Shown piece by piece: positions 1-62,169 of a stretch of 64,000 nt of DNA (the stretch's first letter is position 1; each line of letters starts with the position of its first letter). The DNA comes from a virus (taxonomy: Duplodnaviria; Caudoviricetes), in the IMG/VR virus record IMGVR_UViG_3300001598_000048, positions 9,446 to 73,445 of that record. One strand, written 5' to 3'. A program made the position numbers and the translations under genes. Under the pieces are notes generated by a model. It was given only the letters and a program-made list of their open reading frames with translations. It was not told the origin of the DNA and did not search any database.

Positions 1-79
1 TTAAGCCGATTAAAGTTGCAGGTAAACCCCAAGTAAATGATAGAATGTAAAATAAAATTAATCAAAGTTTTCTTTTCAT
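1..79 (-). CDS. 5' part of a membrane protein; runs off the window start; TGA=Trp at codon 6
   Basis: GAGGTG RBS, then MKRKL(TGA)LILFYILSFTWGLPATLIGL, a hydrophobic stretch that is open only if TGA=Trp. Confidence 0.6.
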
Positions 80-154
80 AATACACCTCATATTTGATTT
101 TATATAATTTATTATAGTAAATTCAATTTACAAAAAACAAATTTGAAATTAATC

Positions 155-183
155 TTGACAAAATGAAAAATTAGTATTATACT
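155..183 (+). promoter_or_regulatory. sigma70/sigmaA-type promoter
   Basis: TTGACA-N17-TATACT upstream of AAGGAG RBS and ATG at 217. Confidence 0.8.
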
Positions 184-216
184 ATGATGTGCAACAAAAA
201 GTAAGGAGTAAATTAA

Positions 217-786
217 ATGATAATAAAATGTTACAACGAAAGTCATAAAAATTTAATTTTTCTTGATTTGGAATTTGAAAATAGAACACTTATACAATTT
301 GCGGGATTATTATTCACTTGAATAGATGACGAAACATATCAATTGACAAGAAGTTGTAATCAATATGTAACCGCAAAAGTTTGTTATCCTTTTATGGAGT
401 ATACAAGTATTACTACGAATTTTCTAGAAGAAAACGGCATTACACTTAGAGATTTACAAATTATCGTTAGAGATGATTTTTTAGCAGATGTAGATTTAGA
501 TGATACATTAGTTATTAGCCACGGTTTGCGCAATGATAGATTGATACTTGAAGAAAACGGCATTAATCTAATTTCGAAAAATGACAAACCCATCGATGGA
601 TATTGCACTTTTAATAATGCTCGTCGTATTTTAGAGCGCGAAAATCATGTCTCGGCTGCAGAACTTGCAGAGGAGGCGGGATATTATCTACATCACGCGC
701 ATAACGCATTTAACGATGTTTGGAGTGAAGTATCAATCTATACATTCTTAAAAAAGATAGAAAAACAAAAATTAGGAGATAAATAA
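217..786 (+). CDS. DEDDh 3'-5' exonuclease (DnaQ-like), 189 aa with TGA=Trp at 319
   Basis: ExoI FLDLEFE lies upstream of the TGA; ExoII SHGLRND and ExoIII HNAFND lie downstream, in frame with track ORF 343..786. Confidence 0.85.
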
Positions 787-1265
787 TGGAATTTTTATTA
801 TTAGACAAATTAAAAACCAATCAGGAATTTAATTATACTATGGTTGAATTTAATTTAGATTTGAATCAACATATGTTAAGTAATATCGCATATATAAATC
901 AAGTTTTTAAAGATTATTTTTCATCTGTTAGTTATACAGCAATTGAAACTGAATATTTAATAAGAATAAATATTGCGGATCAAATTGATGATGAGGAGGC
1001 ATTTTTCAGCAATGCGGTTAAAACGATATTAGCAAAATTCGTTGATAATTTCTGCATTTATGAAGGTCGTCCAAGAGAACATAGATTTGACATTCCTGAA
1101 AAATTATTAGATAAGATTATGATTAGTCGTTCACTTTTAAAGAAAATGATAAATCAAAAAACAAAAGCGGATCGAATTAATATTACTATTGTATGGAAAA
1201 CCGCAAATGAGAATTTTATTTATGAATTATTAAATACTAAACATCCAGGTGAAGCGCATGAATAG
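786..1265 (+). CDS. hypothetical protein
   Basis: Track ORF 159 aa, GGAG RBS, TAATG coupling to the upstream gene. Confidence 0.75.
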   Translation: MEFLLLDKLKTNQEFNYTMVEFNLDLNQHMLSNIAYINQVFKDYFSSVSYTAIETEYLIRINIADQIDDEEAFFSNAVKTILAKFVDNFCIYEGRPREHRFDIPEKLLDKIMISRSLLKKMINQKTKADRINITIVWKTANENFIYELLNTKHPGEAHE

Positions 1266-1752
1266 AAAATTAGATTTTTATACAGATGGAGCTTATTCTT
1301 CTAAAAGTGAAATGGGCGGTTGAGCCGCGCTTTGTATTGAAGAAGATGAAGTAATTAATACAAGAACTGGTTATGAACCATATTCAACAGGAAATAGATG
1401 CGAACTTTTGGCGCTCTTAAGTGCTTTAGAAGATGCAAACACTGTGGAAACAAGTAGAACAAAGATAACTATTTATACTGATAGTGCATATGTTGCGAAT
1501 TGTTTTGCAGATGGTTGGTATAGAAATTGGTTATCAAATGGTTGGAAAACTGCGGATAAACAACCAGTTAAGAATCAAGATTTATGGGTAAGAATAATTG
1601 CATTATATATTAAAATGAAAGAAAAACGTGATCTTGAAATTGTATGGATTAAAGGACACGCTAAAAATAAATGGAATGAATATGCGGATTTACTTGCCAA
1701 GAAACAGAGAATTTTATTAGAACAAAAGATGAAGGAGGCAGATGAAAAATAA
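1258..1752 (+). CDS. rnhA: ribonuclease HI, 164 aa with TGA=Trp at 1321
   Basis: FYTDGA...GG(TGA)AA, NRCELLA, IYTDSAYV, NGWKTADKQPVKNQDLW, WIKGH...NEYADLLA. Confidence 0.95.
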
Positions 1753-2291
1753 TGAAAATATTAATTTTAATGCCTTGCGATGAACAGCACGTTTATGCCG
1801 CAAGTGGTATATATAAAGCGCTTTCAGATGAAGTAAAAGATAAATGCTTTGTTATGCCAATGTTTATGGATTATTTAATTAATACGAAAATAGTTGGAAA
1901 TTGGATAATGGCTTTCTATGATGCTTTAATTAGTGCTAAGAATCTATGTAAAGCCGCAGATGAAAAAAATGATGATGTTATTATTATTGGAAATGCTCCA
2001 TCTGCCGTTAAATTTGATGCTGTTTTCAATTTTCAAGATATAGAAGAAGATATGGCTTATGAAGATAAGTTTATTGAAAAGATAAAAGAAATAGTTGCTG
2101 AAAATGAAAAATTAATCGGCTATGTTAATGATTTACATAAAGCCGAAGAAAGTAAAATGCCTTTGCATAATTGTAAGGCTACAGGCGAATTTTTATCTGC
2201 TTATATTAAAACAGATGCAAAGTTAAATTTATTAAAAGAAGAATACGAACAACGTCTTAATAGGAAAATTCCAGATGTTCTCGAAAGCTAA
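1752..2291 (+). CDS. hypothetical protein
   Basis: Track ORF 179 aa, GGAGG RBS, TAATG coupling. Confidence 0.75.
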   Translation: MKILILMPCDEQHVYAASGIYKALSDEVKDKCFVMPMFMDYLINTKIVGNWIMAFYDALISAKNLCKAADEKNDDVIIIGNAPSAVKFDAVFNFQDIEEDMAYEDKFIEKIKEIVAENEKLIGYVNDLHKAEESKMPLHNCKATGEFLSAYIKTDAKLNLLKEEYEQRLNRKIPDVLES

Positions 2292-3537
2292 TAATTTTGA
2301 ATTAGACCTTAAAGATTTGGATGAGTCTCAGCTCGCAGCCGTGACAAGTGCGGAAGAAAATGTCGTTATAAGGGCTTCGGCAGGTAGCGGCAAAACTAAA
2401 TCTTTAATAAGTGCGATTGCAAATTACAGATATGAACATATTAACGATAGGATTTGCGCAATTACGTATACTCGTGCCGCACGTTCTGAAATGGAAGAAC
2501 GTTTAAAAAATATGGGTATATTTGATGTAGAAGTTACTACAATCCACGTATGAGCCCGCAATCAATTAGAATTCTTTGCGGATCATTATGACTTCTTAAT
2601 CAATATTTTACAAGAATCGCAAATTAAAAAGATATTAAAGAATGAAATTGTGCCGCAATATCTTCTAAAATCTAAGGTTAAATCTGTTAATATTGATATT
2701 TTATATACTTATATCACTGGTAGTAAAAATATGGATATAAGTGATAATTATCGCCGCACACTAAATGCAATTGAAACAAGATATATAGATTATAAACGAA
2801 ATCAACATCTGTATGATTTTACAGATTATCCTTTATATCTATATGATGTATTAACTATTTATAATGAAAATATAAATACTATTGATGCTTTATTTGTGGA
2901 TGAGTTTCAAGACGTTGATGAAACACAATTTAAGATATTTGAAAAAGTTAATACAAATAAGAAATTCTTTATTGGCGATCCTTGGCAAAGTATATTTGTT
3001 TTTAGAGGAGCCGATGGAGAAGTTTTCAGCAAACTTGACAAATTTAAACAATATAAATTAAAATATAATTATCGTAGTTATCAAGAGATTATTGATTACG
3101 CAACTACTGTATATGATACACTAAAAAAAGATGTAGAAATTGAAGAAGAAAATCCAAATGGATTTTATATTTCAGAGATTAATTGAAGCGATCCGAGTTC
3201 TGTTATTTGTGATAGAAAATATGGTGGTTCAGTTACTGTTGTTAATCCTTATAGTGTAAGTTGAATTTTTACTGATACTAATAAAACTTATGTTGCATCT
3301 ACTCTTGAATTTAATAATATTATGACTTCTAATCCGATGATACTTTGCAGAACGAATAAACAAGTAAGAGAAATTCAGTCTTGTGGTTATATTAATGCAA
3401 GTACGGTTCATCAAGCAAAAGGATTGGAATATGATAATGTTATTGTTATTGATTGCGATATAAAATCAATGGAAGATTTGAATATTGCTTATGTTGCAAT
3501 GACACGAGCAAAAAACAATCTTTTTGTTATTAATTGA
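2275..3537 (+). CDS. UvrD/Rep-like SF1 helicase, 420 aa with TGA=Trp at 2551 and 3184
   Basis: Track ORFs 2275, 2650 and 3322 share a frame; motifs ASAGSGKT, VDEFQD, IGDPWQSIF, YNYRS, TVHQAKGLEYD, AYVAMTRAK. Confidence 0.92.
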
Positions 3538-3580
3538 AGTCAATTTGAATTATTATTTAAAAATTGACTGGAGGGATAGT

Positions 3581-5269
3581 ATGTGGACTAATTATAATTT
3601 AACCGATCTATTGTATTCTGTAGTTGGAAGAAAACCTACTAGTTCTATGTCTATAACTATCAAAATGAAACAATTAAAACAAGCATTTAATAGTATCGAT
3701 TTAGTGCTTATTTATAATAATAATCTTGATGATGTAGATATTACTTGAAAATATGGTACATATGAAAATAAACCAGTTTTAGATTTTACACACGGATCTG
3801 TTGATTATGTTACTGTTCAAATACAAGCAATTGTTCTTGCACAACTTTTTAAATATTCTACTGATGTGGAGGGAATACCATCTCAGGAAATAGAATTTAT
3901 TTATGATCCTCAGATTAAAATGAATAGAACAAATGATATAAATTGATATAATATGTTTACAAATGATATAGGAGTGCAATTTGATGATTCTTACGGTTAT
4001 CGTTGAAGTGAATCTAAATATTTAGAAAATGCTACAAACATTTTTTCAATACAAAATTTAATAAGTAATTCTGATGCTGCAAATGCGATGAATGGAAATG
4101 TTATTCATTATAGATATGGAGTAAATGGAAAAGCAATAAATGCAAAAGGAAGAATTGGTACAGATATAACAACTGAAACAGGATATAGAGATAAAAATAC
4201 TGGTAGTTATTTTGATTTTTATAATAAAATTGAATATCTTGGTATGTATAGTGAGTCTGAAAATAATTTTTCTCATTTTGATGCAAGTAATCATTTTGTT
4301 ACTTTAAATGCTTCTGGAAGTTCTATATCATACGAAGGTCCTTTTATATTTGCTCGAGTATGCAATGATTATAATTGTTTGTTAGAAAACTATTCAGATA
4401 TTTATGCAAAAACAGATCATAATTTTAGTTATATATCCTATCAACAAGGAATTAATTTAAAATTAAAAAATAAAACTATTGAATATTTCTTTGGAAATAA
4501 TTGTACAAATCCTTCAAAAATTGCTAAACCAATTGATTTAGACGGAAAAATTTCTTTTAGTTCTTTATCTTCTAGTTTATCTTCTACATATTCTTTTGAT
4601 GGTTCTAGTATTACACCAGAAACTAATATTAAAATAGAAGTTCCACAATTAAGTTCTGATGTTATTGGATATGATACTGCTTGAGATATTGCAAGACATA
4701 TAAAATTAGAAAATTTTGCAACAGAAAGAAAACTTTATATACGATATTGAAAACAAGATGATGGAGAAAAGATTTCTTCTATAACTTTAAATAATTTAAG
4801 TCATATAACATCATCTTGTTTGAAATTCACAGATTTTAATATAGAATTATTTAAACCTTGAAATATAGTAAATCCAAAATCTACTCTTTTAGGATGAGAT
4901 TTAACTACAAACTATAATCTAAATCTCTCAAATACAGTATCTTATAGTTGAAATGATAATTGAACTGGAGAAACACTTTATTTCGAAAGACATGATAGGA
5001 AAGAATATGGTTATGTAATTTTAGGAAAATATGGAGATTTACAATTAACAAATGATAAGAATTTATTAAATTTAACAGATGAAGGACATAATTATTATAT
5101 ACAATTAGATAAACCAGATAATTATAGACAATATGCAATGTGAAGAAGCAAAAGTACGGAATCAAATCATTTAACATATTCTATTACTTCTTTCTGTGAA
5201 CCAGAAAATTCTAATAAATATAGATATTTTGTTTTTAAATTGTACAATATTACGAATTCTATTAATTAA
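3581..5269 (+). CDS. hypothetical protein, 562 aa, N/Y/S-rich, 10 in-frame TGA; possibly a virion protein
   Basis: Manually translated, no TAA/TAG in frame from ATG 3581 (GGAGG RBS) to TAA 5267; joins track ORFs 3524 and 4088. Confidence 0.8.
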
Positions 5270-5276
5270 AATTTTC

Positions 5277-5305
5277 TTGACAAATAGAAAAAAATATACT
5301 ATAAT
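5277..5305 (+). promoter_or_regulatory. sigma70-type promoter
   Basis: TTGACA-N17-TATAAT. Confidence 0.85.
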
Positions 5306-5356
5306 AATAATATAAGGATAAGTATTAACTTATCCTTTTATTGAAAGGAAAAAAAT

Positions 5357-6379
5357 ATGAAAACTATAAAAACTATAAACGATTTCGCAATGATGGAACC
5401 AATGAAATATTACAACAATGAAGATGAAAATAATCAAAAACGTCAAGATATTTTATTAAATAAAGATAATCTTTATATTGCAACAGAAAAACACGATGGC
5501 GACTGGGGAATGTTTATTCACTATAGTAAAGGAAAAAACTTAGTTCGTAGTAGAAGTATAAGTAAAGTTACAGGAGTATATGGTGATTATACAGCAAAAG
5601 TTCCGCATTTAGTTGAAGAAATGGATAATTGGCCAGATAATACAGTAGTATTAGCAGAATTATGTTTTAAAGAATATGGAACTAATGCTAACACAGTTGG
5701 AACAATTTTAAGATGTCTTCCACCTAAAGCGATTGAACGTCAAAAGACAACTCCATTATATGCTTATATATTTGATGTGCTAATGTATAACGGAGAAGAT
5801 TTAACTAATAAACCATATTTAGAACGTATTTATTGGGAATATAATTATCGTTTTGAAGAAGAATATTTTTTTAGACGCACTGAATTATTTTATGATAACT
5901 TTGCAGAACACGCAGATGAAATTATCGTCGCAGGAGGAGAAGGTATAGTTATTCAAAAAAAATCTAATCCTTATATGTCAGGAACTAGAACTGCGTGGGC
6001 AACATTAAAAATGAAGCAAAGTTTACCGCATATGGAACTTAAAGTAATAGGATTTATTGAACCAAATAAATTTTATGAGGGGGATTTTTCACCTATTTGG
6101 AAATATAAATTAGAGGATGGAACTTTAGTTACAAAACCATATTTTTATGGTTGGAAAGTCGGAGTTATTGTTGATTATAATGGTGTAGCAGTTAGAGTTA
6201 CATCTGGTGCAACTGATGAAGATATGGAATGGTTAGCATCTAATGAAGCTGCAGAAAAACTTGCTGCGGGTGAAATATTTGCAGAGGTTAAAGCAATGAG
6301 TGAAAATGAAAAAGCATCATTACGTCACCCTGTATTAGTTAAGCTTAGAGTAGTTGAAGATGGCGTAAATGATAAATAG
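5357..6379 (+). CDS. ATP-dependent DNA ligase
   Basis: Motif I ATEKHDG, YIFDVL, EGIVIQK, LKMK, LRHP near the C terminus. Confidence 0.88.
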   Translation: MKTIKTINDFAMMEPMKYYNNEDENNQKRQDILLNKDNLYIATEKHDGDWGMFIHYSKGKNLVRSRSISKVTGVYGDYTAKVPHLVEEMDNWPDNTVVLAELCFKEYGTNANTVGTILRCLPPKAIERQKTTPLYAYIFDVLMYNGEDLTNKPYLERIYWEYNYRFEEEYFFRRTELFYDNFAEHADEIIVAGGEGIVIQKKSNPYMSGTRTAWATLKMKQSLPHMELKVIGFIEPNKFYEGDFSPIWKYKLEDGTLVTKPYFYGWKVGVIVDYNGVAVRVTSGATDEDMEWLASNEAAEKLAAGEIFAEVKAMSENEKASLRHPVLVKLRVVEDGVNDK

Positions 6380-6387
6380 GAGATAAT

Positions 6388-6678
6388 ATGAAAATAGAAA
6401 ATAAATGTAAAAGTTGTAAACACGAAAAAGTTTGTCGATTTAAAGATGCATTTGAAGGTTCAAAAGAATTATTAGAAATATCAAGTAATTGGTTAGAAAG
6501 TGATAATTTTTCAATTGAATTAAAATGTAAACATTATGAAGAAGTATGGAGAAATACTTATGGAACAATTACTACAACACCATATTATAATGGCGGTTTT
6601 AAAATTAGTGATAATTTAAATTTTACTAATACACTTACTTCATCTGGAGATAATAATGGACAAAGTACAACGATTTAG
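6388..6678 (+). CDS. hypothetical protein with N-terminal CxxCxxxxxC
   Basis: Track ORF 96 aa, AGGAG RBS. Confidence 0.7.
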   Translation: MKIENKCKSCKHEKVCRFKDAFEGSKELLEISSNWLESDNFSIELKCKHYEEVWRNTYGTITTTPYYNGGFKISDNLNFTNTLTSSGDNNGQSTTI

Positions 6679-6994
6679 AGAAATTGTAAATCAAATGGCT
6701 GATTTATATGAAAAGAAAAATAAAAACTATGGTAATAGTTTTGGCGAATTATTTGAAAAACTTGGTCCAATATCAGGATTAGTTCCGCTTCATAATAAGT
6801 TAGACAGAATAACTAATTTAGTAATAGGCGGTAAAAATGATTTCGAATCAGTAGAAGATAGTTTAAAAGATTTAGCTTGTTATGCAATTATGAATTTAAT
6901 TGAAAGAGAATATCAAGAGAATAAATTAAAATCAGAAGAAACAAGTTATGAATGTGTAACTGAAATTGATTGGGGTAAAAAAAATGCAGAATAA
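6656..6994 (+). CDS. DUF1599 / nucleotide-modification-associated domain protein
   Basis: KKNKNYGNSF...NKLDRI...EDSLKDLACYAIM matches this family from memory. Confidence 0.7.
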   Translation: MDKVQRFREIVNQMADLYEKKNKNYGNSFGELFEKLGPISGLVPLHNKLDRITNLVIGGKNDFESVEDSLKDLACYAIMNLIEREYQENKLKSEETSYECVTEIDWGKKNAE

Positions 6995-7571
6995 ACCTCT
7001 TGGTTATTTAGGCGGAGATATTATGACTAAAGGCGCAAATCTTGCGCGTCAACAAGAGTATGATGAATTCAAGAAACTTGATATTGACGTTGATGTTTAT
7101 TCACCAGTAATGAATAAATCAATTAATGACAAAGCATCAATGACAGAAGAAGAAAATAATCATCTTGCGGAAAAAATTACAGATGCCGATATTGAAAGAT
7201 TATGGAATAGTGATTTTGTAGTTATGTGTCCAGAACAAAGCGCAATTGGCTCAATGTGCGAAACTGGCACACTTTATGGCTGGAAATATTTAACAAATAA
7301 GTTGTTATCAAAGATAAATGAATTACAAGAAGATGGAAAATCAGATAGAGAGATTTTGAGTTATTTATTTGGTGAATTAATGAGAATTCAAAATAAAGAT
7401 ATAGGTTATCATTACTTTGATATTAGAACAAATCACTTAAATGAAAAAGATTGGCGCAGAAGTTTTTCTATCAATCAATTATTATATGGTATGATACTTT
7501 ATTCATCATCTGTTGGTGATTTTGAAACCTTTGATGAAATAATGAGTAGATTAAAAGAAAAATATAAATAG
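6984..7571 (+). CDS. nucleoside 2-deoxyribosyltransferase-like protein
   Basis: YLGG...VYSP...DIERLWNSDFVV...AIGSMCETG matches the NDT/N-glycosidase pattern. Confidence 0.7.
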   Translation: MQNKPLGYLGGDIMTKGANLARQQEYDEFKKLDIDVDVYSPVMNKSINDKASMTEEENNHLAEKITDADIERLWNSDFVVMCPEQSAIGSMCETGTLYGWKYLTNKLLSKINELQEDGKSDREILSYLFGELMRIQNKDIGYHYFDIRTNHLNEKDWRRSFSINQLLYGMILYSSSVGDFETFDEIMSRLKEKYK

Positions 7572-7580
7572 GAGTTTAAT

Positions 7581-7763
7581 ATGAGTGAAAAAATAAAAAG
7601 TTTAATTTTTAACATTTTAGCCATTGTATTCATCGTAATAGTATTGGCAGCCGCCGTTTGTACCGCATGCGGTTTTCAATCATTGGTTTTATCAATTTTA
7701 ACATTGGTAAGTCTAATTGCTTTTATTACATTTGCTACTATTTTTAGATTTAAAAATAAATAG
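7581..7763 (+). CDS. small two-TM membrane protein
   Basis: 60 aa, two hydrophobic segments, AGGAG RBS. Confidence 0.7.
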   Translation: MSEKIKSLIFNILAIVFIVIVLAAAVCTACGFQSLVLSILTLVSLIAFITFATIFRFKNK

Positions 7764-7772
7764 GAGTAGCAG

Positions 7773-9053
7773 ATGAGTACTTTAATTTATAGCATTAGCG
7801 ATAAACCAAAAACCATTAAGGAGTGATGTTTATATACATTACAAATGGTTCTTGCTGTATTTGTTGCTACAGTATTAATTTCTGATATATGCGGAACTCC
7901 AGTCAGTGCCTGTTTAATTGGCGCTTGTATTGGAACAATTATTTATCAATTAATTACAGGATTTAAATCGCCTATGTTCATTTCAAGTTGCGGCGCCACA
8001 GTCAGTGCTGTTATTGGCGCACTTGCACTTCCAAGTATTAATGGACAAAACTATTTAATGGTAGTTTTTGGCGGTATTATTATTGCGATTGTTTATATGA
8101 TTTTTGCCGCCTTGTATCAAATTAAAGGCGCTAACTTCATTAATAAAATATTACCACCAACTATCGTAGGCTCAATTACAATAGTTATAGGTTTAAATCT
8201 TGCGGGATTTTTAATTACTTATACGCATGATAGTAATACTTGAGAAGTAATCGTTGCTATTTGCACTATGTTTGTAGTTGTGGTTTCATCGCATTATTTT
8301 AAAGGTTTTATGAAAACCATTCCATTTTTATTTGGTTTAGCATTTGGATATGTGTTTTGTTTAATATTAAAATTATTCGACATTAATATTATTAGTTTTG
8401 AATCTTTTAATAATTTACATTGATATCCAGAATTTACTTTCTTAAAATGGAATTCAGGTGATTTTAGTTGGTCTAATTTAGGACAAACAGTATTATTATT
8501 CTTACCAGTTGCTTTATGCGCTATTTGCGAACATATTTCAGATCATAAGACTTTATCTAATATAGTAGAACAAGATTTAATTGCAAATCCGGGTTTAAAT
8601 AAAACTTTACTTGGAGATGGAATTGCTTCTGCCGTTGGAACAATTACGTGTGGTTTACCTAATACAAGTTATGGTGAATCAATTGCAACAATAGGTTTTA
8701 GTAAAGTTGCATCTGTATGGATTACGACTGCGGCGGCCGCATTTATTGGTTTACTGTCATTTTGTGCGCCTATTACTGCTTTTATAGAAACAATACCAAG
8801 TTGTGTATTTGGTGGTTGCGCAATGGTCTTATATGGATATATTGCAGCAAGTGGATTAAAAACATTAATGAATAATAAAGTAGATTTAGAAGATAATAAA
8901 AATCTAACTATTGTATCAGTTGTATTATGCGTAGGAGTAGGTGGAATATTTTTATTTAGCGCATCTTTTGCTGGTGTAAGTTTAGCAATGGTATTAGGTG
9001 TTATTTTAAATCTAATTTTAAGGAATAAAAATGACGAAGAAGGAATTAAGTAA
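7773..9053 (+). CDS. uraA: NCS2-family uracil/xanthine permease (UraA/PyrP-like), 426 aa with 3 TGA=Trp
   Basis: Track ORFs 7845 and 8823 share a frame; QMVLAVFVATV, SSCGATV, EHISDH, LLGDG, PNTSYGES, GGCAMVLYGYIAASG; many TM segments. Confidence 0.9.
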
Positions 9054-9237
9054 ACTTTTAAGAAGTTTACCACGCAATACAAAAATACAATTAAATGGAG
9101 AAGATGATATAATCGTAACTTATTGAATGAACAATGAAGGTCGATGCGGAATTAATCTATGCAATTCTCCGAATGTAGAAAATGTTGAAATAAAAACATT
9201 TTCAAATAGTGAAAATTTATTTGACAAAGTCGAATAA
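9031..9237 (+). CDS. hypothetical protein, 68 aa with one TGA=Trp
   Basis: AAGGA RBS; MTKKELSKLLRSLP...TY(TGA)MNNEG...DKVE-TAA; overlaps the permease stop. Confidence 0.6.
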
Positions 9238-9249
9238 ATGTAGTATAAT
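9221..9249 (+). promoter_or_regulatory. sigma70-type promoter
   Basis: TTGACA-N17-TATAAT. Confidence 0.85.
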
Positions 9250-9362
9250 AAATTATAAGTTAAGAAAAAGAAAAAAGATTACTAAGATTAAATATTGGTA
9301 ATGCGAAGTAACTTTATCTTTATTAACAAAAAAAATAATACAAATAGGAAAGGAAATTAAAC

Positions 9363-9632
9363 ATGCCAACATCAAAAGCTGCTGAATTTATCAGCTACAC
9401 AGACAACGAAAAAGTTGCAATCGAAACATTAAAAGCTAACAGAGGACAACATTTATCTGCAAAAGAATTAGGAATCGCTGTAGCATTATTAACTTCAATC
9501 GGTAAGAAAGCCGTAGACGAAAGACCAATGGCTGAAGGCGTTGAAAGAATCGTTCTTAACAAAGAAGATTATGAATACGTTTGCCCAACTTGCGGTTCTA
9601 AACATTCTTATAAATTATACTGGATTGACTAA
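9363..9632 (+). CDS. hypothetical protein with C-terminal CPTCG knuckle
   Basis: Track ORF 89 aa, AAGGA RBS, codon usage typical of a highly expressed gene. Confidence 0.75.
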   Translation: MPTSKAAEFISYTDNEKVAIETLKANRGQHLSAKELGIAVALLTSIGKKAVDERPMAEGVERIVLNKEDYEYVCPTCGSKHSYKLYWID

Positions 9633-9640
9633 TTAATTAA

Positions 9641-9728
9641 CTTGTTGCATCTATTCGCAGCAAGGTATCGATACTACTGTGTCCAATATGAATAGGTGTG
9701 TCACTTAATAATGGTCAACACAAAGTAA
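9641..9728 (+). ncRNA. candidate structured RNA element (possible pseudoknot) in the 3' UTR
   Basis: Stem CTTGTTGC/GCAGCAAG whose loop ATCTATTC is complementary to GAATAGGT at 9690-9697; palindrome GTATCGATAC; no family recognised. Confidence 0.3.
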
Positions 9729-9764
9729 AAGAGGAAACTACAGGTCGGTTTCTTCTTTTCTTTT
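9729..9764 (+). terminator. intrinsic terminator
   Basis: AAGAGGAAAC...GTTTCTTCTT followed by a T-rich tail. Confidence 0.7.
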
Positions 9765-9774
9765 AATTTTTATT

Positions 9775-10221
9775 ATGGAGAGCAAAATGAAATTACAATT
9801 TAAAGAATTTTTACATAGAATGGAAGATTCTGAAGCCTTTTCAACAAAAGAAACAAGTGCTGGAATTTTAACTATTCAACAAACAGAAAGAAATGCTCTT
9901 CGCAAGGAAGGATTAGCCGCTCTTAAAAGCGATTTAGAAAGTCTATATGGAGATGAATTCGATATAGTAGAAACTAAAGAAGGTATCGTTGTTGTCGCAG
10001 AAGGCGAAGATTATACTTTTAGTTGAGAAATCAAATGCACAATCAAGAGTTTGGATTATGATCCATTCATCGAAGCGAATAATTTTGCGGATTTAGAGGC
10101 TATGAAAGCGCAAAAGAAAGCCGTTAGAGAAGCAGAAGCCGCAGAGAAACTTGAGAAGAAAAAAGAGAAACAAAGAGCTAAGGCTTTAGAAACATTAAGA
10201 AAATTAGAAGCAGAAGAATAA
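9775..10221 (+). CDS. hypothetical protein, 148 aa with one TGA=Trp and a charged C-terminal coiled coil
   Basis: Frame continues past TGA 10024 to TAA 10219. Confidence 0.75.
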
Positions 10222-12273: not shown

Positions 12274-12284
12274 ATAAAATTATC

Positions 12285-12313: not shown

Positions 12314-12344
12314 ATAGTATAAATATAAATATATGGAGAAAAAT

Positions 12345-14903: not shown

Positions 14904-14912
14904 AAAATATAT

Positions 14913-51886: not shown

Positions 51887-52404
51887 TAGTTAATATCCCC
51901 TAACGATGGTTTCTTTGTAGCAGAAACACGACTATAACGATTTTCTAAATCTCTAGCATTACTACGATATTGATCGAGTAATTTAATATTTTTATCTACT
52001 GCGTTTGCACGAGAGAAGGTTTTGATATTTGAATCTGTATAAATATCTTCAAAATTATCAGCATTAGAGATTTGATATTCGCACCAATATACTTTCATTC
52101 AAGCGATAATAATTTCTATTTCTGCTTGAGTTAAATCGTTATTAAAATAAGCGTGCGGAATCGCATCATCATAACCTTCTTGTTCAGGAGTAATTATGAT
52201 AAGACTATGATCTCGATTTCTAATTGCTCTAAAAGTAGTATAACTAATATCTATTTTAGGAAACTTGAAAGCGCAAATTGCGCGGCATGCTAAATAATAA
52301 CATTCTTCATCAATATTATCTTCAGTGATTACGCCATAATATTCACCACGAATAGTAGCACGAAATGGTGGATATAAAACATCATCCCAATATTGATTTG
52401 GCAT
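51886..52404 (-). CDS. putative head-tail adaptor, 172 aa with one TGA=Trp
   Basis: Track ORFs 52404 and 52098 are separated only by one TGA (IIIA-TGA-MKVYW). Confidence 0.72.
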
Positions 52405-52428
52405 AGTTTTTACCTCTTATTGGTTTTA

Positions 52429-52908
52429 CTATTCACCGTCTATTGTTAATTGAACTTTGTATAAAGATTCAAGCATTTTAACTACGCCTTGAGTTAATTC
52501 AGACACATTAGCAGTTATGACATCCATAACTTTATCTTGACCGAAATCTTCACCGGCTTTCATAATAGCGGCTCTGTTTCCTGATTTAAGAATAGCAAGA
52601 ATCTCTGCATCACGATTTACAGATGCAGGAACAAAATCTAAAACTTCATCAAAATATACACCTGCTTCAATAGCTGCTTTAACAATAGCGTCATTATCAT
52701 CAAAAGTAATATATCCTTGTTTATACATTGAATAAACATCTTCATCTAAGAATACGCCTAATGCCCAATCTAATGGTAAAGATTGTTGTGGAAGTCTATT
52801 TGTTAAATGAATTTTTCTAACAAGAGTGTTATTAGAAACTGGACGTAAATCAAATAATACTTCCATTGGTGTAGTTTTAATAAGTTTAAAATTTCTATTT
52901 TCAGACAT
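52429..52908 (-). CDS. hypothetical protein downstream of the capsid gene
   Basis: Track ORF 159 aa, GGAG RBS. Confidence 0.7.
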   Translation of the reverse strand: MSENRNFKLIKTTPMEVLFDLRPVSNNTLVRKIHLTNRLPQQSLPLDWALGVFLDEDVYSMYKQGYITFDDNDAIVKAAIEAGVYFDEVLDFVPASVNRDAEILAILKSGNRAAIMKAGEDFGQDKVMDVITANVSELTQGVVKMLESLYKVQLTIDGE

Positions 52909-52934
52909 TTTCTATGTCTCCTTTCTTTAATTTT

Positions 52935-52968
52935 TAAAAAGGGAGAAGAGAGAAAAACTCCTCTCCCC
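52935..52968 (-). terminator. intrinsic terminator after the major capsid gene
   Basis: GGGAGAGGAG-TTTTT-CTCTCTTCTCCC-TTTT on the minus strand. Confidence 0.75.
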
Positions 52969-52983
52969 GTAAAATAAGTTTAA

Positions 52984-54054
52984 TTAGTTAGTAATTTTAA
53001 TTACAGCGTAGTTGTTAGCCATTGCAACGCCAACACCGAGCATTTTGTGAGCTTCCCATTTTTCTGAACCAGTAGCTTGTTCATTTCTCTTGATGTATAA
53101 ATCGCCTTTCATAGCAACTTTTACAGGTTTAGCTCCACTTGGGATTACGAATACATAATTGCTTGCATAAGCCCATTTATCGTTAGTTTTGTCTTCTAAG
53201 TAGTTAGGTAATTCAACAACGTTAACTCCTTTGTATACTTGAACGAAACCAACATTTCTAATATCCATTGAGTCTTGGTTATTAGGATATCCTGCAGCAT
53301 ATGTTGTATTAGCAATTGGGTTGTATAAGTTTTGTAATTCTTTATAGAAACCGAAAATTGTTGGAACGCCATATTGTTTTACATATTGCATAACAATATC
53401 AATTGCTGCTCCCATAGTTTCTTTAGTTGTTAAGATGTTTCTATTAGAATCATAGTTATGGTTTCCAGAACCACTTGTAGCTGTACCAACGATCTTTTCA
53501 TAAGGAGCGCCTGCAGCTGGTGTAGCACTGATTAATGCGTTATAAACTTCTTTATAAACGACTTCTTGGAATCCTTCAACGATGTTATTGAATAATTCGC
53601 CTAATGTAATAGTTCCAAGTAATAATTCTTCTAAAGTTACATAGATACCAACAGTATAAACATCAACTGGTAATGAGAAATACTTATTGTCTAATTTAGC
53701 AGCTCTATAGATACCGCCTCTTGCGCCTTTAGAAATAGTGAGTTTTGCACGTTTCTTTCCGATCTTTTCGATATCGAAAATAACTTCTGCGTCTCTTGCG
53801 AAAGTTTTAACTTCAGCAAATTGACCCATGATACCTTGAATCTTAGCAGGTAATACTTCATCTACTAATTCTTCAACGATTGCGAATGCACTAGCTTCAG
53901 CTCTTTCAATTTCTTTATAAGTCGAATTTTCAGATAAACCGATTTCTTTTGCTAAAGCGTTAATAGCAGCTTCATTAACTTCTTGTGCTGAGAAGTTTGT
54001 GCTAGGTTGATTAGTTAAAGCGGCGATAATGCCTTTTCTTAATTCGTTTGTCAT
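52984..54054 (-). CDS. major capsid protein
   Basis: 356 aa, strongly biased codons, position after protease/scaffold and before a terminator; GEFAEVK-like QFAEVKTF...ARGGIY segment. Confidence 0.8.
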   Translation of the reverse strand: MTNELRKGIIAALTNQPSTNFSAQEVNEAAINALAKEIGLSENSTYKEIERAEASAFAIVEELVDEVLPAKIQGIMGQFAEVKTFARDAEVIFDIEKIGKKRAKLTISKGARGGIYRAAKLDNKYFSLPVDVYTVGIYVTLEELLLGTITLGELFNNIVEGFQEVVYKEVYNALISATPAAGAPYEKIVGTATSGSGNHNYDSNRNILTTKETMGAAIDIVMQYVKQYGVPTIFGFYKELQNLYNPIANTTYAAGYPNNQDSMDIRNVGFVQVYKGVNVVELPNYLEDKTNDKWAYASNYVFVIPSGAKPVKVAMKGDLYIKRNEQATGSEKWEAHKMLGVGVAMANNYAVIKITN

Positions 54055-54072
54055 TTTCTTATACCTCTCTAA

Positions 54073-54591
54073 CTATTTAATGAACATATAATGATATGCT
54101 GTAGTTCCATCTGCTAAAGTTGTGCAAGTGAAAAAATCATCAGATTGACCAACACCGTCAGTTGAAGCGATAGAAACAATTCTTCCATATAATGGATCAG
54201 AAGCATTAGAACCTAATTCTAATGACATATCTGACATCCATTCATCACCAGGCATTAATTGAACTAATCTTAAGCATTCATGATTGATGTCTGTTGAATA
54301 GAATTTATTAGCATTAAATACTGTGTTTAATGGTTCATTGTAAACAATGAATAATGAATCACCAACGACTGGATCTTTGATACCATCTTTACCGATAGTA
54401 ACGATATGACCATTAGCGATATGATTAGTTGTAGCAGTAGATGTACTGTCTGCTAAATTATATTTTTCTTGTGTAAAAGTACTATTTGTTGAAGCAACTG
54501 GTAATTGAGAAACTACAAATCCAGGTTGTAATCCTTTTAAATTGTTAGGTTCAACTTGTTTGTACTTAGGTAAAAAATCATAAAGTGCCAT
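54073..54591 (-). CDS. putative capsid decoration protein
   Basis: 172 aa, between scaffold and MCP; QVEPNNL...GFVVSQLP. Confidence 0.6.
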   Translation of the reverse strand: MALYDFLPKYKQVEPNNLKGLQPGFVVSQLPVASTNSTFTQEKYNLADSTSTATTNHIANGHIVTIGKDGIKDPVVGDSLFIVYNEPLNTVFNANKFYSTDINHECLRLVQLMPGDEWMSDMSLELGSNASDPLYGRIVSIASTDGVGQSDDFFTCTTLADGTTAYHYMFIK

Positions 54592-54614
54592 AATTTTTTT
54601 ATAACCTCTTTCTT

Positions 54615-56411
54615 TTATTTGCGCATGTTTTTACGAACAAATGCGTCAAGTGAATTTTCTTCTACATTTTTAGGAGCAAATGTAGCAAAAGCTCTCATTG
54701 GTTTAACTGAAGATTCTTGATTTCTCTTATATGCTTTTAAAAGTTTTAATTCTAATTGTTCTTCAGTTGTTTCTTCTTGAGAAGCAAAATTCATAAATTC
54801 ATTAAACTCTTCTTCTTCAAGAGATTCCTTATAAGAGTTAACCAATGCTATTTTCTTTTCTCTTTTAAGGGTTTCAAATTCTGCTCTTTCACTTTCAGTA
54901 AATGAGGTAGAACTTGAAGTTTCTTCGATTGATTTTTGTTCATCGTCTACACTCACTTTCATATTAGTATTTGGAGCGATTTCAACATTTACATCTTGTG
55001 CTGGATTTTCTACATCGATTTGTTCGCATTTTTCGATACTAGGATGTCCTTCAGGTAATGGATCTCCTGGCTTAACGTCTGGATGATTTGCAGGTCTTTT
55101 ACATTTATCATCTTTTTCGTCTTCGCATTTTTTCTTATCGCCGCATGCGCATTCTTCGATTTCACAATCTTCTTTTTTCTTTCCACCACAAACACAATCT
55201 TCAGGATCTTTATCCTTTTCTGGACAATTTGGACATTCAGATTTTTCGCATTTTTTCTTATCGCCACAAGCACAATCCGATTTTTCTTCGCATTTTTTCT
55301 TGTCGCCACAAGCACAATCTTCTACGTCATCTTTGTCGTCTTCTTTGCCATCTTCCTTGTCATCTTTATCATCACAAGGACCGCATTCGCAGTTTTCTTT
55401 GTCAGTGCTTTCGCTTTCTGAACTAGAATCAGATTCTTCTTTTGTAGCACATAAACCAGCATCAGCCTCTTTGGCTTGTTCAATGTTTGTTTCATCTTTA
55501 GTCATATCGGTAGATACTGAGTTAACGATGTCTTCGTATGCAACGTGAACTTCGTTAATTCCACCTAGAGTAACTTGTCCATCTTCAGAGAAAGAATAAC
55601 CAATACGCATAAGTTTAGAAGTGCCTTCCATATAATAATAGAAACGAACAATAGCGCTATCGCTAAACATATCTACTATTGAAACAAATGCATCATTTTC
55701 GTACTCTTTACAAATGGCTTCGTTTACCTTTAGAGAAATATCACCCCAAGATAATTTCATGAATTCTGATAAATTCATATTTTCGCCTCCACGTTGAGTC
55801 TGATCTTGTTTATTTTCGCAATAATCTTTTAAGAGTTTCATTTTCGCTTCGAATTTTTCATCATAAGAGAAGAATTCAGAACCTGAAAATGCTGGTTTTT
55901 GATCATTGCCTAATACACTTACTCCAACAAATCTTCCTGCGGTGAATTCAATGTTTTTGAAGTGTTTCTTTTCATCGTAATTTACTACATACTTCACGCT
56001 GTTAGGGTCTAACTCTAAAGATTGCTTGTGACCAATAATCTTCTTTGCTAAATCGCCAACGTGGTCTGGGCGTTCTGTGTAGAGAACTACATCACAAACA
56101 CACCAAGTATTTCCATCATCATCTTTTTCAAAAGAAGAAGAAGTACATGGATCGACAACACCAAAAATTTCTTGTTCAGTAGCATGACCAACGAAATCTT
56201 CTTTTTCTTCGTCATAAAAACCAACAACAGGTGTATAAGGTAGAGTTTGAACTAATTCTTCAGAGAACTTGTCTGAGAAGAAGCGGTGATCCGCAGTTTC
56301 TCCCTTATAGAAAACCTTAAGTTTACCACGAGAAAAGTTTTCTTGTTTGGTGTCTGTTGAGAAATCTGATAGCCCAGCAGGTCAACTAAAATTAATTGCT
56401 TGCTTTTTCAT
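54615..56411 (-). CDS. prohead protease/scaffold, 598 aa with TGA=Trp at codon 10 and a Cys-rich repeat insert
   Basis: Manually translated from ATG 56411 (GAGG RBS): LPYTPVVG..DFVGHA...HKQSLELD; joins track ORF 55997; acidic C-terminal scaffold. Confidence 0.8.
55124..55320 (-). repeat. three CACGDKKKCE coding repeats, two of them a near-tandem 42-nt unit
   Basis: TCGCATTTTTTCTT(A/G)TCGCCACAAGCACAATC near 55247 and 55289; diverged copy near 55124. Confidence 0.85.
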
Positions 56412-56440
56412 CTTTAATCCTCATATATATATTTAGTGTA

Positions 56441-57985
56441 TTATTCTGAATCAGAATTTGATTTTACTTCATTTTCTACAACCTCTGACTCAGTTGAGGG
56501 CTCATTCTCAACATTGTCCTTTTTAGAATCAGAAGTTTCTTCATTTTCTTTTTCAGTTTTTCCGCTAGTTCCTGAACGATCTTCCGCAGTTTGAGTATAA
56601 GATGTTTGCATAGGAACCATTTGGTCTAATTTTAAGAATTTTTCAAGATTAAAGTTATCTTGTATATTCTTTTGTTTTACACCTGATGCTATTAAGTATC
56701 CAAGCTTATCTACACCAAGTGTAGCGTTATCTTTATATACTTTTATATCATCGTCATAAGTATAAGTTGAAATTGGTAAAATGTCAATATCCGCTTGGAA
56801 ATCTTTAAAATCAAACCAATTATTGATAGTTATACTATAGAAATTAGAAAGTGCTTGTACGAATTTCCAAACATATCCTTTATCACGAATTAGTGACATT
56901 TTTAAAGCTTGAACACTTTCAGATGTAAAGATTCCGCTATTGAAACCCGCATTATTAAAGATTGCTTTGAAAGCTTTACTTAATACTTCGTTTTCAGATG
57001 TATCATTTTCAGAAATCTTATCAACATGAACGTCTCCATAAGTTGTAATAAGACGTGCTTTTTCACCTGTTTCAACAATTTTCTTTAATGATTTATGAAT
57101 AGCATCTACTTCATCTACTTCGAATATTAATTTATCTTCATAGTGAGGCATTGTGTGAACTACTATATATTTTAATAAGTTTTCATTTCTTTCTAATTCG
57201 TTATCTTGATAATGTTCATAATCAAGAATTCCGCCATATAGATAGAAGAAAGTTGGCATTGCAACATCATTTAACATTAAACCACTTGTAAAATGTGGAT
57301 CTAATACTTGCCAACGGAATGTTCTATCTTTTTCAAATTTATGATAAAGTTTAATAAATTCTGCTGGGAAAGTTTTTAGATATTCTTCTTTACTTATTAC
57401 CGCAGTTGAGCCTATTTGATCGAAATAAGTAAAATCGAATTCTATAATTGATGTTCCAAATTGAGTTTGTCCAACTTGACGACAGTATTTTGTTGGTAAT
57501 AAAATTGTATCAATTGCTAAAGTTTCTTCATCACAAACGGTAGTAAAATATACAGAACCAGTTGTAAAGAGAATAGATAATAATGCTGGAAATTTAGTTT
57601 CAATTGATAAACCATCAACAACTTCTAACATAGTATTATATGTTAACATAAAGTCATCTTCTTTTGGTTGTTTTTTAAGTTTTGCTTTGCTTTTTGTGTA
57701 TACTTTATGAGGTATAACTTTATATCTCCACATATACATATTAGCTAAATAATTGATAATTGAAGCGTAAATTGGATTTGCTGCATAAAGTTTACGAGAA
57801 GTTTCTGATAACTTTTCTACATCTCCAACATCAGCTCACATTGCGGCTCTAACTTGCGCCGCAGTAATAAAATCTACACTTTTATAATATGGTTTCTGAT
57901 CACGCAGTCTGGCAGCGGATGGTTCGCTTTCGTATAACTTTTTAAGTTTTTTAACTCGATCGATCTTAAATTGTTCTGTATTCAT
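56441..57985 (-). CDS. portal protein, 514 aa with TGA=Trp at codon 50
   Basis: GAGG RBS; SRKLYAANPIYASIINYLANMY; position between TerL and protease. Confidence 0.8.
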
Positions 57986-57994
57986 ATTTTACCT

Positions 57995-59803
57995 CTAATC
58001 AACAAGAGCAATAACTCTTCCTCTGCTCTTGCTTCGTTTCTTTTTATAATAATCTAATTCAAATTGTTGATTTACTGCCCAAACTAAATATTCTGCCATA
58101 GAGAAAAAGTCTTTTTGAATTTTTTCATTTCTACGCACAATACGCAATGTATTTGATAATTGGTCAGATGTATTAACAATATCAAGATTTTTTAATTCTT
58201 GTTCCATTTTATCCATTACTTTAAATGGCATTAAAAATTCTTGTTGTTTCTTTAAACTCATTTGAGTAAAAGATTTATTTTTACTATATAACGTAAGCGC
58301 ATCGTTTAGTTTAATTGGATAAGTAATTGCGCCTGTACTCATACGTGAAAAGAAGAATCAGTGAATTTGTTCTCCTGTTTTACCACCTGATTTAATTTCA
58401 TAACAGATGGTTTTATCTTTTGGATAACGAATAACGTCATGTTCTGTAGAAGTTGGCGGATTAATAATTCCAAGTCCTTCTAATAAAGCGCCATATTCAT
58501 CAGTTGTTTCTTTATTTAATCAGTCTCTAATGCCGGCTCCAACACCATTCGCATCGTATATTAGAAGTTTCGCACTATAGGTTAAAACCGCTTTTTTAAA
58601 CGAATTGGCAATAACCATATAATCAGTTGAAGGTATTGTAAATAAATTAACCATTTTATATGTAAAATAATGTTCTTTAGGTATAACTTTCGCTACACCA
58701 ACCGCAGTTTCTGCCGCACCATCTTTCGCCATATCGGCGCAGATGACATAGAAACAATCTTCTTCTTTTTGTGTTGCGGTTAATTTATCTTTTAATTCAA
58801 CCATTTTAATTTGTCTTAATGATGAAACAATGTTTGCGCTAAATGCGGCACCAACTGGTGCATCACTTCAACGAGATTCATATTCACGTTCAAATGAAGA
58901 TTTACTAAATGATGGTGCGTTAATAACATCTTCTATTTGTTTTTGGGCGGTTAAACCGCACGCTAATGGAATACGATATGTTCCACTTAATACCGTATAA
59001 TGAAGCGGATCAATTACACTTCGGCATAGTATTTCAATTAGTTTTTGATAAGCAAATGTTCCTTGATATCCAGCCGTTGTGATATATATTTGTTGAGATT
59101 GCGGTTCATTTGGATTAATTAATCCATTTGACATTTTACGAGGTTCGTTCAATAATGGAATATAAACTTCATTTACTTTAATTTCATCTTGTTCAATTAC
59201 TTCTTCAAATATTAATGATTGTCTACGTAAACCACGGACATTTCCTAAACCTAATGAAGAACCATTTTTAAAATTAAATTCTACATAGTCTTTACCCATT
59301 GTATACGGATCGAGTAATTTTCCCGCAATTTTACGCTTTTGCATTTCATTTGCGAGTAATGGAAATTTTACCCATAAGTCATCAACTACTTTCTGTTTAG
59401 CAATTTCTGCCGCTTGTTTATTTGTTCCGGCAGTAATTGTTGTATGATGACGCGGAATTTCCATACAGGTGAAATAACGATTTAAATCGGCTAAGAAAGA
59501 TTTTGATGTACCACGTGAAAAAGTATCATATGATGCGTTACTTCTTGACATGGTACGTATTATCATTCTTTGGAAAAAGAACAGATGAAAATGAGATTTA
59601 TGCGGAGTAATAATATCGGTAAATATATCTGGATAAACTATAAGTTCATTTAGATAATTGCCGACTTTTTCAAAGTTTTCATTAATGCGCTTTTTCGTAA
59701 GAAAACCAATGGCGGCATGTTCGTCCTCATCTAGAAAATTAAAATATTCTTCTATTTCAGGATCAATATAAGTTTCATCAAAAATATCATCAATTAAAGG
59801 CAT
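57995..59803 (-). CDS. terL: terminase large subunit, 602 aa with 3 TGA=Trp
   Basis: FSRGTSKS, LIFEE, ITTAG, FEREYESR(TGA), nuclease motifs CADMAK and IYDANGVG, KDFFS; three track ORFs in one frame. Confidence 0.9.
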
Positions 59804-60837
59804 TATAAATCCTCCGGATTCGCTATAACTGTCTTTGAAGGTATTTTTTCCGCATCTTCAGAGAAATCGATATTAAGCGCTTCTGCATCTTCTTCTGTCG
59901 CAATCTCTCCATCTTCAGGTGTAAATTGAAGAAGATCTTCAATCTTTTGTTGTTCTGTAATTTGTCTTGCGTATTCTTCTTCTTTTGTTTGCTTTTGTTG
60001 TTGAATCATATCTTCAAGTAATTGTTGTAAACCAGTTGATTCAAGAATAAGTTTGCGGTTTGCTTCTTTGATATCGGTAATGGCGCGATCTACTTCGTCT
60101 TTATCGGCACCTTGGAAGTATTTAAAAATGAAACCGCTATCTTCCATATATTGATATAATTCCGCAACCGTTGTTATATCATCTGTACGAGTTTCATTTA
60201 TCATGGTTTCAAGATCCGCTTGTTTTGCGAATGTTGATCATGCACCACTAAAATCTTTAATGGCTTTCGCATCTTTTGCACGAATAGCTTCATCCATTTC
60301 AACTTGCAGTTTACAGAGCGTTTTTACCGCTTCTTTTTGTAAAGGATTTGTTATACTATTTGCTTTAAGCGTTTTTGTATAGATACTATCAAGTTTAATA
60401 ATTTCTTCAAAAGTATATTGATCACCTCACTTAAGACGACCACGATCAATGTAAGATTCTTTGATAGGTTCTATGCGGTTTAAAATTTCCATTAAAGAAC
60501 GGCATTTCTCTCATTCTTTATTTGTTTTTGATCAAAGATCACGTGTAGAAGTAGTATAGAATAAATTTTTCTTTTCTGTCTTTTCTTCTATCATAAGAGA
60601 AGTATATTCTCGGAAGACATTTTGTCCGGCATCTTTGCTCAATTCGATTCATAGTTGCGGATCAAAAGGTAGATTATAGGTACGACAGAAAAAATCCGCA
60701 TGTTCAATATTATTGTAATTTAGGTTTTCGCCAATGCAATCAAAACAAATTGATGTGCCGCTCAAAGGATTGTTTGAGAACATTAATTCTTTCGTTTTGC
60801 CGCATTTCGGACATCGATTGTATTCAAATTTTATCAT
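59803..60837 (-). CDS. putative terminase small subunit / conserved protein upstream of TerL, 344 aa with 5 TGA=Trp
   Basis: N-terminal CPKC...CFDC; joins track ORFs 60837 and 60204; TAATG coupling to TerL. Confidence 0.7.
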
Positions 60838-60865
60838 AGACTAGTAATCATCTCCTTACGATGAA

Positions 60866-60894
60866 ATTATAGTTCAAATGAAATAAAAAATCAA
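60866..60894 (-). promoter_or_regulatory. sigma70-type promoter of the packaging/head operon
   Basis: TTGATT-N17-TATAAT, then AAGGAG RBS. Confidence 0.7.
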
Positions 60895-61019
60895 AAATAA
60901 CTTGCGGAACTTTTATCGGGATTTGAAGGAATTTTCACCGCAAAGTTTGTCTGTTTGTCCGAATTCTTGCGATGTTTTTATAAAACTGAAAAAGTTTTCG
61001 GCAAAATAGTCGAAAAAAT

Positions 61020-61048
61020 TTGACAAACTTGAAAAAATGATATATAAT
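61020..61048 (+). promoter_or_regulatory. consensus sigma70 promoter with no ORF directly downstream
   Basis: TTGACA-N17-TATAAT. Confidence 0.8.
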
Positions 61049-61054
61049 AATAAT

Positions 61055-61212
61055 GTAAGAAGAAGAAGTTAAGATAAAGATAAGTAAAGTTAATAAAGTT
61101 AATAAATGATATTAAATAAACAAGTAAATAATACTTTTCCTCCTTTAATGATTATTTATCAATTTGATATCATCGTAGAGGTCAAGTGAGTAATTGCTTG
61201 ACCTTTATTTAT
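61055..61212 (+). ncRNA. candidate small RNA of about 150 nt
   Basis: Bounded by the promoter at 61020 and hairpin AGGTCAAG/CTTGACCT plus T-rich tail (61179-61212); contains TCCTCCTT. Confidence 0.35.
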
Positions 61213-61275
61213 TATTTATTTCTTGCTTTGCTTACTATCTATGAAATACTATACTGAGAAGGAGATTTTAACCGC

Positions 61276-62169
61276 ATGTTTTTTAAGATTTTTATTACAT
61301 TAGTTGCTTGTATTCTATTTGGTCTTTGCATCTGTTTAGGTCGAAAAAAGAAAAAATTCGAAGACAAGTTTAATTGGTCTAACCAAGAAAGAGAATTACT
61401 TAATCATACCATTGATAAACTTAATAATGATCTTGATTCATTAAATGGTGACCTTAATTCATTAAATGATAGGTTGGAGGTCCTCACCGCGCAAAATACT
61501 TCTTTGGCGGCACGCGCGTTTGTAGGAGATAGCATCAAAAATGATATTGAGAAGCTCAATGAGATTAAGGACAGTGGAGCAGATGAAAAGAATAGATTAA
61601 AAGAAGAGTTGGAGATGCTACGACGCGCCGTTGAAAATGCCCAAAAAGAGAAAGAAAATTGAGATAAAGAATTAATTGATATTATTGCCGAAAGAAAAAT
61701 GGTGCGGGAAAAAATTGATGGTGAAGATGAAAAAGGTTGGCGCTTTGATTTAAATGGTAAAGAGATGACACTTATACAGGCGATTGATAGCATCTGCGGA
61801 TTGTATCCCGAGTTGAGTGTAGACTTAAGAAAGATTGAATGAAGTAAAATATGAATGCCGAAATTACAAGAATGAAATAAACTATATGGATTAAGTAAGT
61901 GCGGAATTTATAAATTGAGTATAGTGGGCGGAAACGGTGAAGAAGATTGTTATATTGGACAAGCCGTTGATGTAAAAGATAGATGATACACTCATTGTAA
62001 AAAGATTTTGGGCGTTGAAAAAGTTGGTAATGAAAAGTTGTATAGGAAAGTGGAAAAACCTGATAGATTGATATGAGAGATATTGGAAGTTGTAAATGAT
62101 AGAAATAAGTTGGATGAAAGAGAAAAATTTTGAATCGAATTCTATGGGGCGAAATTAAATATTAGGTAA
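61276..62169 (+). CDS. membrane-anchored coiled-coil protein with C-terminal GIY-YIG endonuclease domain, 297 aa with 7 TGA=Trp
   Basis: N-terminal TM and coiled coil; CGIYKL...CYIGQAVDVKDR(TGA)YTH...LDEREKF(TGA)IEFY; AAGGAG RBS. Confidence 0.85.

Follow-up and report, generated by a model that had tools for sequence, protein, structure and literature searches.

A 64,000-nt stretch of viral DNA, hereafter the window, was analysed for its use of TGA codons. It covers bases 9446-73445 of the linear IMG/VR record IMGVR_UViG_3300001598_000048 (73,445 bp, 66% complete according to CheckV), a contig of about 73 kb that represents roughly 66% of a tailed phage of about 115 kb from gut or rumen; the GC content of the window is 28.7%. 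In this phage, UGA is almost certainly decoded as tryptophan, and the recoding is selective and modular, not genome-wide, with a replication module that is fully readable in the standard code. The best-supported mechanism is a switch of the late genes to UGA = tryptophan in a standard-code host, to which we assign a probability of about 0.72. The initial annotation of this DNA had proposed that the phage reads TGA as tryptophan (table 4); the residue is supported by homologue columns and coding cover, and because the recoding is modular, “table 4” probably describes the state of the infected cell late in infection rather than the native code of the host.

Treating TGA as a sense codon raised the fraction of the window covered by open reading frames (ORFs) of 200 aa or more from 0.466 to 0.794. 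The TAG-as-sense control gave a cover of 0.49 and therefore no gain, and reading TAA as sense only multiplied spurious ORFs in the AT-rich DNA of the window. Under table 4 the window is densely coding, with genes grouped in modules, and the 55 genes called with this table form the gene set used here. Across 28 of these 55 genes, 102 in-frame TGA codons were counted, alongside 134 TGG codons; a few of these TGA sit no more than 10 codons from the start or 15 codons from the end of an ORF and could be outside the true gene, so that 102 is an upper bound. The initial annotation had described in-frame rejoining across TGA in about 30 genes, which agrees with the 28 counted here, and its examples (UvrD, UraA, NrdD, the tape measure protein, TerL and the portal) are all real; the five motifs it had quoted, GGxAA in RNase H, SPNVxRK in RuvC, DRxYTH in the GIY-YIG nuclease, LLxKGIQE in the S74 protein and KKxDTL in the tape measure protein, were all located in the genes to which they had been attributed. 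Its statement that every called gene ends in TAA or TAG holds for 55 of 55 genes (41 TAA, 14 TAG and no TGA), although the absence of TGA stops is partly forced by the ORF definition used. Tryptophan would make up 0.67% of codons if it were encoded by TGG alone and 1.19% with TGG and TGA together, the latter being near the usual tryptophan content.

The residue encoded by TGA was examined using sixteen related viral contigs (65-80% amino-acid identity) fetched with a terminase query. In codon-level tblastn alignments, the 248 codons found opposite window TGA were most often TGG (96) or TGA (85), followed by TTA, TAT and ATT, while in the reverse comparison TGA codons of the relatives lay opposite TGA (85), TGG (46), TTT (16) and TAT (9) in the window. 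With three whole relatives and further loci added, 56 of the 102 TGA sites were alignable; tryptophan was the majority residue at 31 of them, and TGA alone was found at 8. Pooling the non-TGA codons opposite TGA (n = 190) gave 115 for tryptophan, 13 for tyrosine, 12 for leucine and 11 for isoleucine. Independent standard-code enzymes of known structure (PDB) agree with this assignment, as TGA codon 217 of UraA lies opposite a tryptophan of the E. coli permease and the TGA of NrdD opposite a tryptophan of the T. maritima enzyme, and the TGA of RNase H lies opposite tryptophan in the Chlorobium enzyme and tyrosine in that of E. coli. Three TGA sites of UraA carry tryptophan in 111 to 119 of 119 family homologues, at least one of which (locus L067) has a table 11 translation without in-frame TGA, and therefore its tryptophan codons are TGG. 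The close UraA homologues are all members of the same phage family and none is bacterial; they inform on the exchange of TGA and TGG and point to no host.

The distribution of TGA among the genes of the window reveals where this recoding applies. TGA accounts for about half to 85% of the tryptophan codons in tail, head, packaging, nuclease and several accessory genes, and TGG is the sole tryptophan codon in the ligase, in the probable capsid gene and throughout the replisome. The replication block, with 0 TGA to 50 TGG, differs from the rest of the window at a Fisher p of 4e-15. Base composition is not the cause of this pattern, because A-ending codons dominate in the block itself, where A3/(A3+G3), computed over Lys, Glu, Gln and TTR codons, is 0.89. 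The orthologous replication blocks of three relatives (G001, G002 and G003), which share 65-75% DNA identity with the window block and have GC contents of 30-37%, contain no TGA either, and 53, 52 and 39 TGG codons, respectively. Synonymous sites are saturated over this distance, with 59-67% of the G-ending Lys, Glu and Gln codons of the window being A-ending in a relative. Conserved TGG codons were nevertheless switched to TGA at 0 of 110 positions in the replication block versus 27 of 116 in other genes, which, at saturated synonymous sites, shows that purifying selection keeps TGA out of the replisome. TGA is likewise missing from the ligase and the probable capsid gene in every genome where they could be aligned, perhaps because suppression is costly for proteins that are early or highly expressed. 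As a separate observation, the syntenic relatives differ widely in overall GC content (28.7% in G000, 37.1% in G001, 35.2% in G002 and 30.0% in G003), and all have the same TGA-free replication block. The left DNA-metabolism module of the window shows light and variable recoding.

A candidate decoding tRNA was found in relatives of the window phage. The two complete relatives measure 115.7 kb and 118.4 kb, the latter with terminal repeats, and carry 28-31 tRNAs, including a tRNA-Trp(CCA). By synteny, the tRNA arrays of the relatives map past the right end of the window phage’s contig. In G002, a 97-nt tRNA with anticodon UCA (G002:60247-60343, equivalent to L050:2248-2344, minus strand) has an acceptor stem, a discriminator base G73 and an anticodon arm that are most like those of the phage’s own tRNA-Trp(CCA). 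Its sequence also contains an extra hairpin of 4 bp with a 7-nt loop, G-U-CCA-A-A, resembling the anticodon loop of tRNA-Trp. In G001, the tRNA(UCA) gene (L051:7726-8389, minus strand) is split within the anticodon (U|CA) by a 566-nt insert that is preceded by U, ends in G, contains an ORF of about 145 codons and matches the Rfam family Intron_gpI at 26.7 bits (E = 2e-4), below the gathering score. When the exons are joined, ARAGORN calls a tRNA(UCA); the split gene had been missed by ARAGORN and Rfam tRNA scans because of this group-I-like interruption. An exact-pattern scan found the tRNA(UCA) gene (97-98 nt) in five viral contigs, three with an intact copy and two with a copy split at the same place, the further contigs besides G001 and G002 being L164, L166 and L168. 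In the window and the whole 73-kb contig, ARAGORN and Rfam searches returned no tRNA and thus no tRNA-Trp(UCA), short-word BLAST with the relatives’ tRNA(UCA) as query found no match in the contig, and no RF-1-domain protein or class-Ib synthetase was found in five related records (G000-G004). We infer that the window phage carries its tRNA(UCA) on the missing third of the genome. It is also possible, though tentative, that the code switch of this lineage depends on this aberrant Trp-like tRNA(UCA), whose CCA-loop hairpin may act as a decoy, so that the host tryptophanyl-tRNA synthetase (TrpRS) goes on charging a tRNA with an altered anticodon; in the members with a mobile group I intron at U|CA, self-splicing could add a layer of timing or mobility.

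These elements fit the model that Borges et al. put forward for Agate-type phages (bioRxiv 10.1101/2021.08.26.457843; Nat Microbiol 2022). The host would read the standard code, and the early replication genes would be translated by its unmodified machinery. A phage-encoded Trp-like tRNA with anticodon UCA would be expressed next and would suppress UGA, so that the TGA-bearing late genes would be made only after the switch. Several observations weigh against such a late switch. The genes for UvrD, RNase H and an exonuclease, all of DNA metabolism, bear one to five TGA each, so that an equation of early genes with the standard code is not clean and the boundary does not simply separate DNA genes from virion genes. 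A tRNA, a release factor and TrpRS are all absent from the contig, which is 66% complete, so that the decoding agent of the window phage itself is unseen. Amidase_2, Amidase_3 and GH25 domains are absent from the five related records, two of them complete. The lack of these lysins would be consistent with a host that has no cell wall, a trait of the classic table-4 mycoplasmas but also of standard-code wall-less Bacilli, and the negative result says little because only these three families were searched. Two further points, which concern the identity of the host, are that the Bmp lipoprotein gene discussed below is conserved across Bacillota (57-68% identity to many Clostridia and Bacilli) and that a search of 20 kb of the phage DNA against 106 genomes of the candidate order for spacer-like matches gave only AT-rich noise, the only 100% matches being of 24-26 nt with E about 1e-4 to 2e-3 per genome. 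As an observation in its own right, the gene after the holin-like one (29458-29799) encodes a 146-aa protein of unknown function and not a recognisable lysin.

Some of these points would suit a host that natively uses table 4, such as an uncultured gut member of Mycoplasmatales, with the phage sharing the code of its host and the TGA-free replication module being due to codon optimisation or recent import. This explanation, the main rival although we consider it unlikely, would be compatible with the very low GC content, with the lack of called genes ending in TGA, with a contig that has no suppressor tRNA and, given a wall-less host, with the lack of the three common peptidoglycan hydrolase families in complete relatives. 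It fits poorly with the replication module, where an A3 of 0.89 predicts that about 45 of the 50 tryptophan codons should be TGA and none is. Recent import fails to explain this, because zero TGA has been kept in four genomes with saturated synonymous sites. Furthermore, phages that share the reassignment of their host carry in-frame TGA in about 90% of genes, as reported for code 25 (10.1101/2021.08.26.457843), versus 28 of 55 here, and the relatives carry their own tRNA(UCA) beside tRNA-Trp(CCA). The bacterial homologues of Bmp and the release factor gene described next also speak against a native table 4.

The window phage carries a Bmp lipoprotein gene that is absent from G001, G002 and G003. 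Its closest counterparts (68-69% identity) belong to “Bacilli bacterium” metagenome-assembled genomes (MAGs) from animal guts, and in bacteria its nearest homologues form part of nucleoside ABC-transporter operons. Metagenome contigs bearing the closest copies show GC contents of 27-30% and contain no in-frame TGA, and one of them uses TGA as a stop; two related MAGs in the genome collection (1.4-1.5 Mb) carry prfB. Bmp was rejected as a host identifier, the gene being too widely conserved across Bacillota. Taken together, the TGA-free replisome, the phage tRNA(UCA) beside tRNA-Trp(CCA) and the contigs of the Bmp homologues indirectly favour a standard-code host, and a low-GC, Bacilli-type bacterium is likely.

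Two further readings concern the meaning of TGA itself. A decoding of TGA as glycine (table 25, the code of phages of Absconditabacteria and Gracilibacteria), or else as cysteine, selenocysteine or the like, is very improbable. Coding density leaves room for it, as density by itself does not discriminate between tables 4 and 25, but glycine was encoded by only 3 of the 190 pooled non-TGA codons opposite TGA (about 2%), GGN was not among the ten commonest of the 248 codons opposite window TGA, TGA and TGG swap freely among relatives, and the structurally characterised homologues of RNase H, UraA and NrdD carry tryptophan. The homologue-column comparison that had been suggested for this purpose yielded no glycine pattern; tables 25 and 10 are excluded, and so is selenocysteine, which is implausible at 102 sites in 28 genes. 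That the TGA codons are genuine stops, whether through pseudogene formation in a decayed phage, misassembly or occasional programmed read-through, is hardly credible, since apart from the few TGA very near ORF ends no result supports it, in-frame homology and Pfam domains run on past TGA in conserved genes, the same habit recurs in independent contigs of many metagenomes, and TAA or TAG never interrupts the TGA-bearing frames.

Comparison with known recoded phages places these findings in context. Borges et al., aptly cited in the initial annotation for recoded gut phages, described TGA-to-Trp recoded phages of animal and human guts, among them the Agate lineage (about 127 kb, including cattle-derived genomes), in which the DNA replication machinery is in standard code, TGA accumulates in structural and lysis genes and an intron endonuclease is TGA-biased; only about one code-4 genome in three had detectable suppressor tRNAs (10.1101/2021.08.26.457843). 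The window phage matches each of these descriptive features of the lineage, to which it is likened by description and not by terminase phylogeny. The shared features are TGA = tryptophan, a genome size of 115-127 kb, animal-gut or rumen-type samples, kinship with Firmicutes phages, replication genes in standard code with structural genes gaining TGA, a tRNA(UCA) found in only some genomes and a TGA-biased nuclease of homing-endonuclease type, the GIY-YIG gene of the window paralleling the Agate intron endonuclease. Unlike in Agate, the search here revealed no lysis cassette containing a recognisable lysin, and the contig lacks the tRNA region. Phages of Mycoplasma and Spiroplasma, whose hosts use table 4, are similarly AT-rich, read UGA as tryptophan and do not use TGA as a stop, but decoding supplied by the host should give uniform recoding, unlike the 15-kb replication module that stays TGA-free under strong A3 pressure. 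The TAG-to-Gln phages (crAss-like, Lak and phAss-1; PMC10607447, PMC9523058) likewise reassign a stop mainly in late genes, with phage suppressor tRNAs and standard-code hosts, but the codon and the amino acid differ, and TAG brings no gain in cover here. The code-25 phages of Absconditabacteria share in-frame TGA and differ in their decoding as glycine, which is almost never opposite TGA here, and in their far more pervasive recoding. The modular pattern is thus already published for recoded gut phages, and the window phage adds another example.

The features of the window are listed in Table 1.

Table 1. Modules and selected genes of the window, with TGA and TGG codon counts
Feature	Position	Strand	Content and basis	TGA	TGG
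Left DNA-metabolism and nucleotide-salvage module	217..10221	+	exonuclease-like protein, RNase H, UvrD-like helicase, 594-aa unknown, ATP ligase, DUF1599, deoxyribosyltransferase-like protein, UraA permease (Pfam, codon counts)	24	29
ATP ligase	5357-6379	+		none	
Replication module	10354..26224	+	eleven genes, GyrB to DnaE, 5,095 codons: GyrB, GyrA, Sak annealing protein, DnaB-like helicase, primase, RecJ, DnaE-type Pol III alpha (Pfam, codon counts)	0	50
Mixed block	26224..31254	.	374-aa unknown (3 TGA), DEDD exonuclease, host-like Bmp/PnrA-like lipoprotein (0 TGA), holin-like protein (0 TGA), 146-aa unknown (3 TGA), RuvC-like resolvase (2 TGA)		
Tail module	31277..45652	-	most heavily recoded block: S74-chaperone tail fibre, 1,858-aa tail protein (20 TGA), three unknowns, 1,544-aa tape measure protein	41	7
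NrdG and NrdD anaerobic ribonucleotide reductase pair with 233-aa protein	45672..48774	-		2	8
Head and packaging module	49126..60837	-		18	15
Probable major capsid gene	52984-54054	-		none in any of four genomes	
Portal	56441-57985	-	in head and packaging module		
TerL	57995-59803	-	in head and packaging module		
GIY-YIG nuclease gene	61186..62169	+		8	2

The large terminase subunit TerL shares 29-35% identity with its counterparts in phages infecting Geobacillus, Brevibacillus, Bacillus and Lactococcus, the nearest named ones being Geobacillus E3 and SPbeta/YonF-like, and the phage was therefore placed among the large siphovirus-type phages of Bacillota. The best TerL matches among GenBank phages reach at most 35% identity, a nucleotide search found no close GenBank phage, and several tail proteins of the window had no match in Pfam and PHROGs searches. 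Outside the tail block, the strongest TGA bias is that of the 594-aa ORF at 3485-5269 (plus strand), with 11 TGA versus 2 TGG; Pfam and PHROG searches gave no match and no counterpart was found in G001, G002 or G003, while locus L067 has a counterpart of 699 aa with 13 TGA at the same place. The initial 9.4 kb of the contig, which precede the window, contain three large ORFs of 462, 957 and 1,150 aa (L163:1258-8994, minus strand) with 15 TGA in total. Pfam gave no match for them, and G001, G002 and G003 have no counterparts; they are probably variable host-recognition or accessory proteins. The nucleobase and nucleoside salvage genes at 6656-9053 encode DUF1599, the deoxyribosyltransferase-like protein and the UraA permease, and the Bmp/PnrA-type lipoprotein gene lies apart from them at 28211-29401.

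Overall, this contig and its relatives need annotation with TGA = tryptophan, as table 11 breaks about 30 genes, including those for the terminase, portal, tape measure protein and helicase. The 15-kb replisome block, kept free of TGA despite saturating synonymous drift, supports the published idea that recoding gates the late genes. The suppressor tRNA of the relatives, with its extra arm and, in some of them, an intron that splits it, helps to account for the apparent lack of a suppressor tRNA in many TGA-recoded phages, and if the missing third of the genome holds a tRNA(UCA) gene, the window phage would use the same device.

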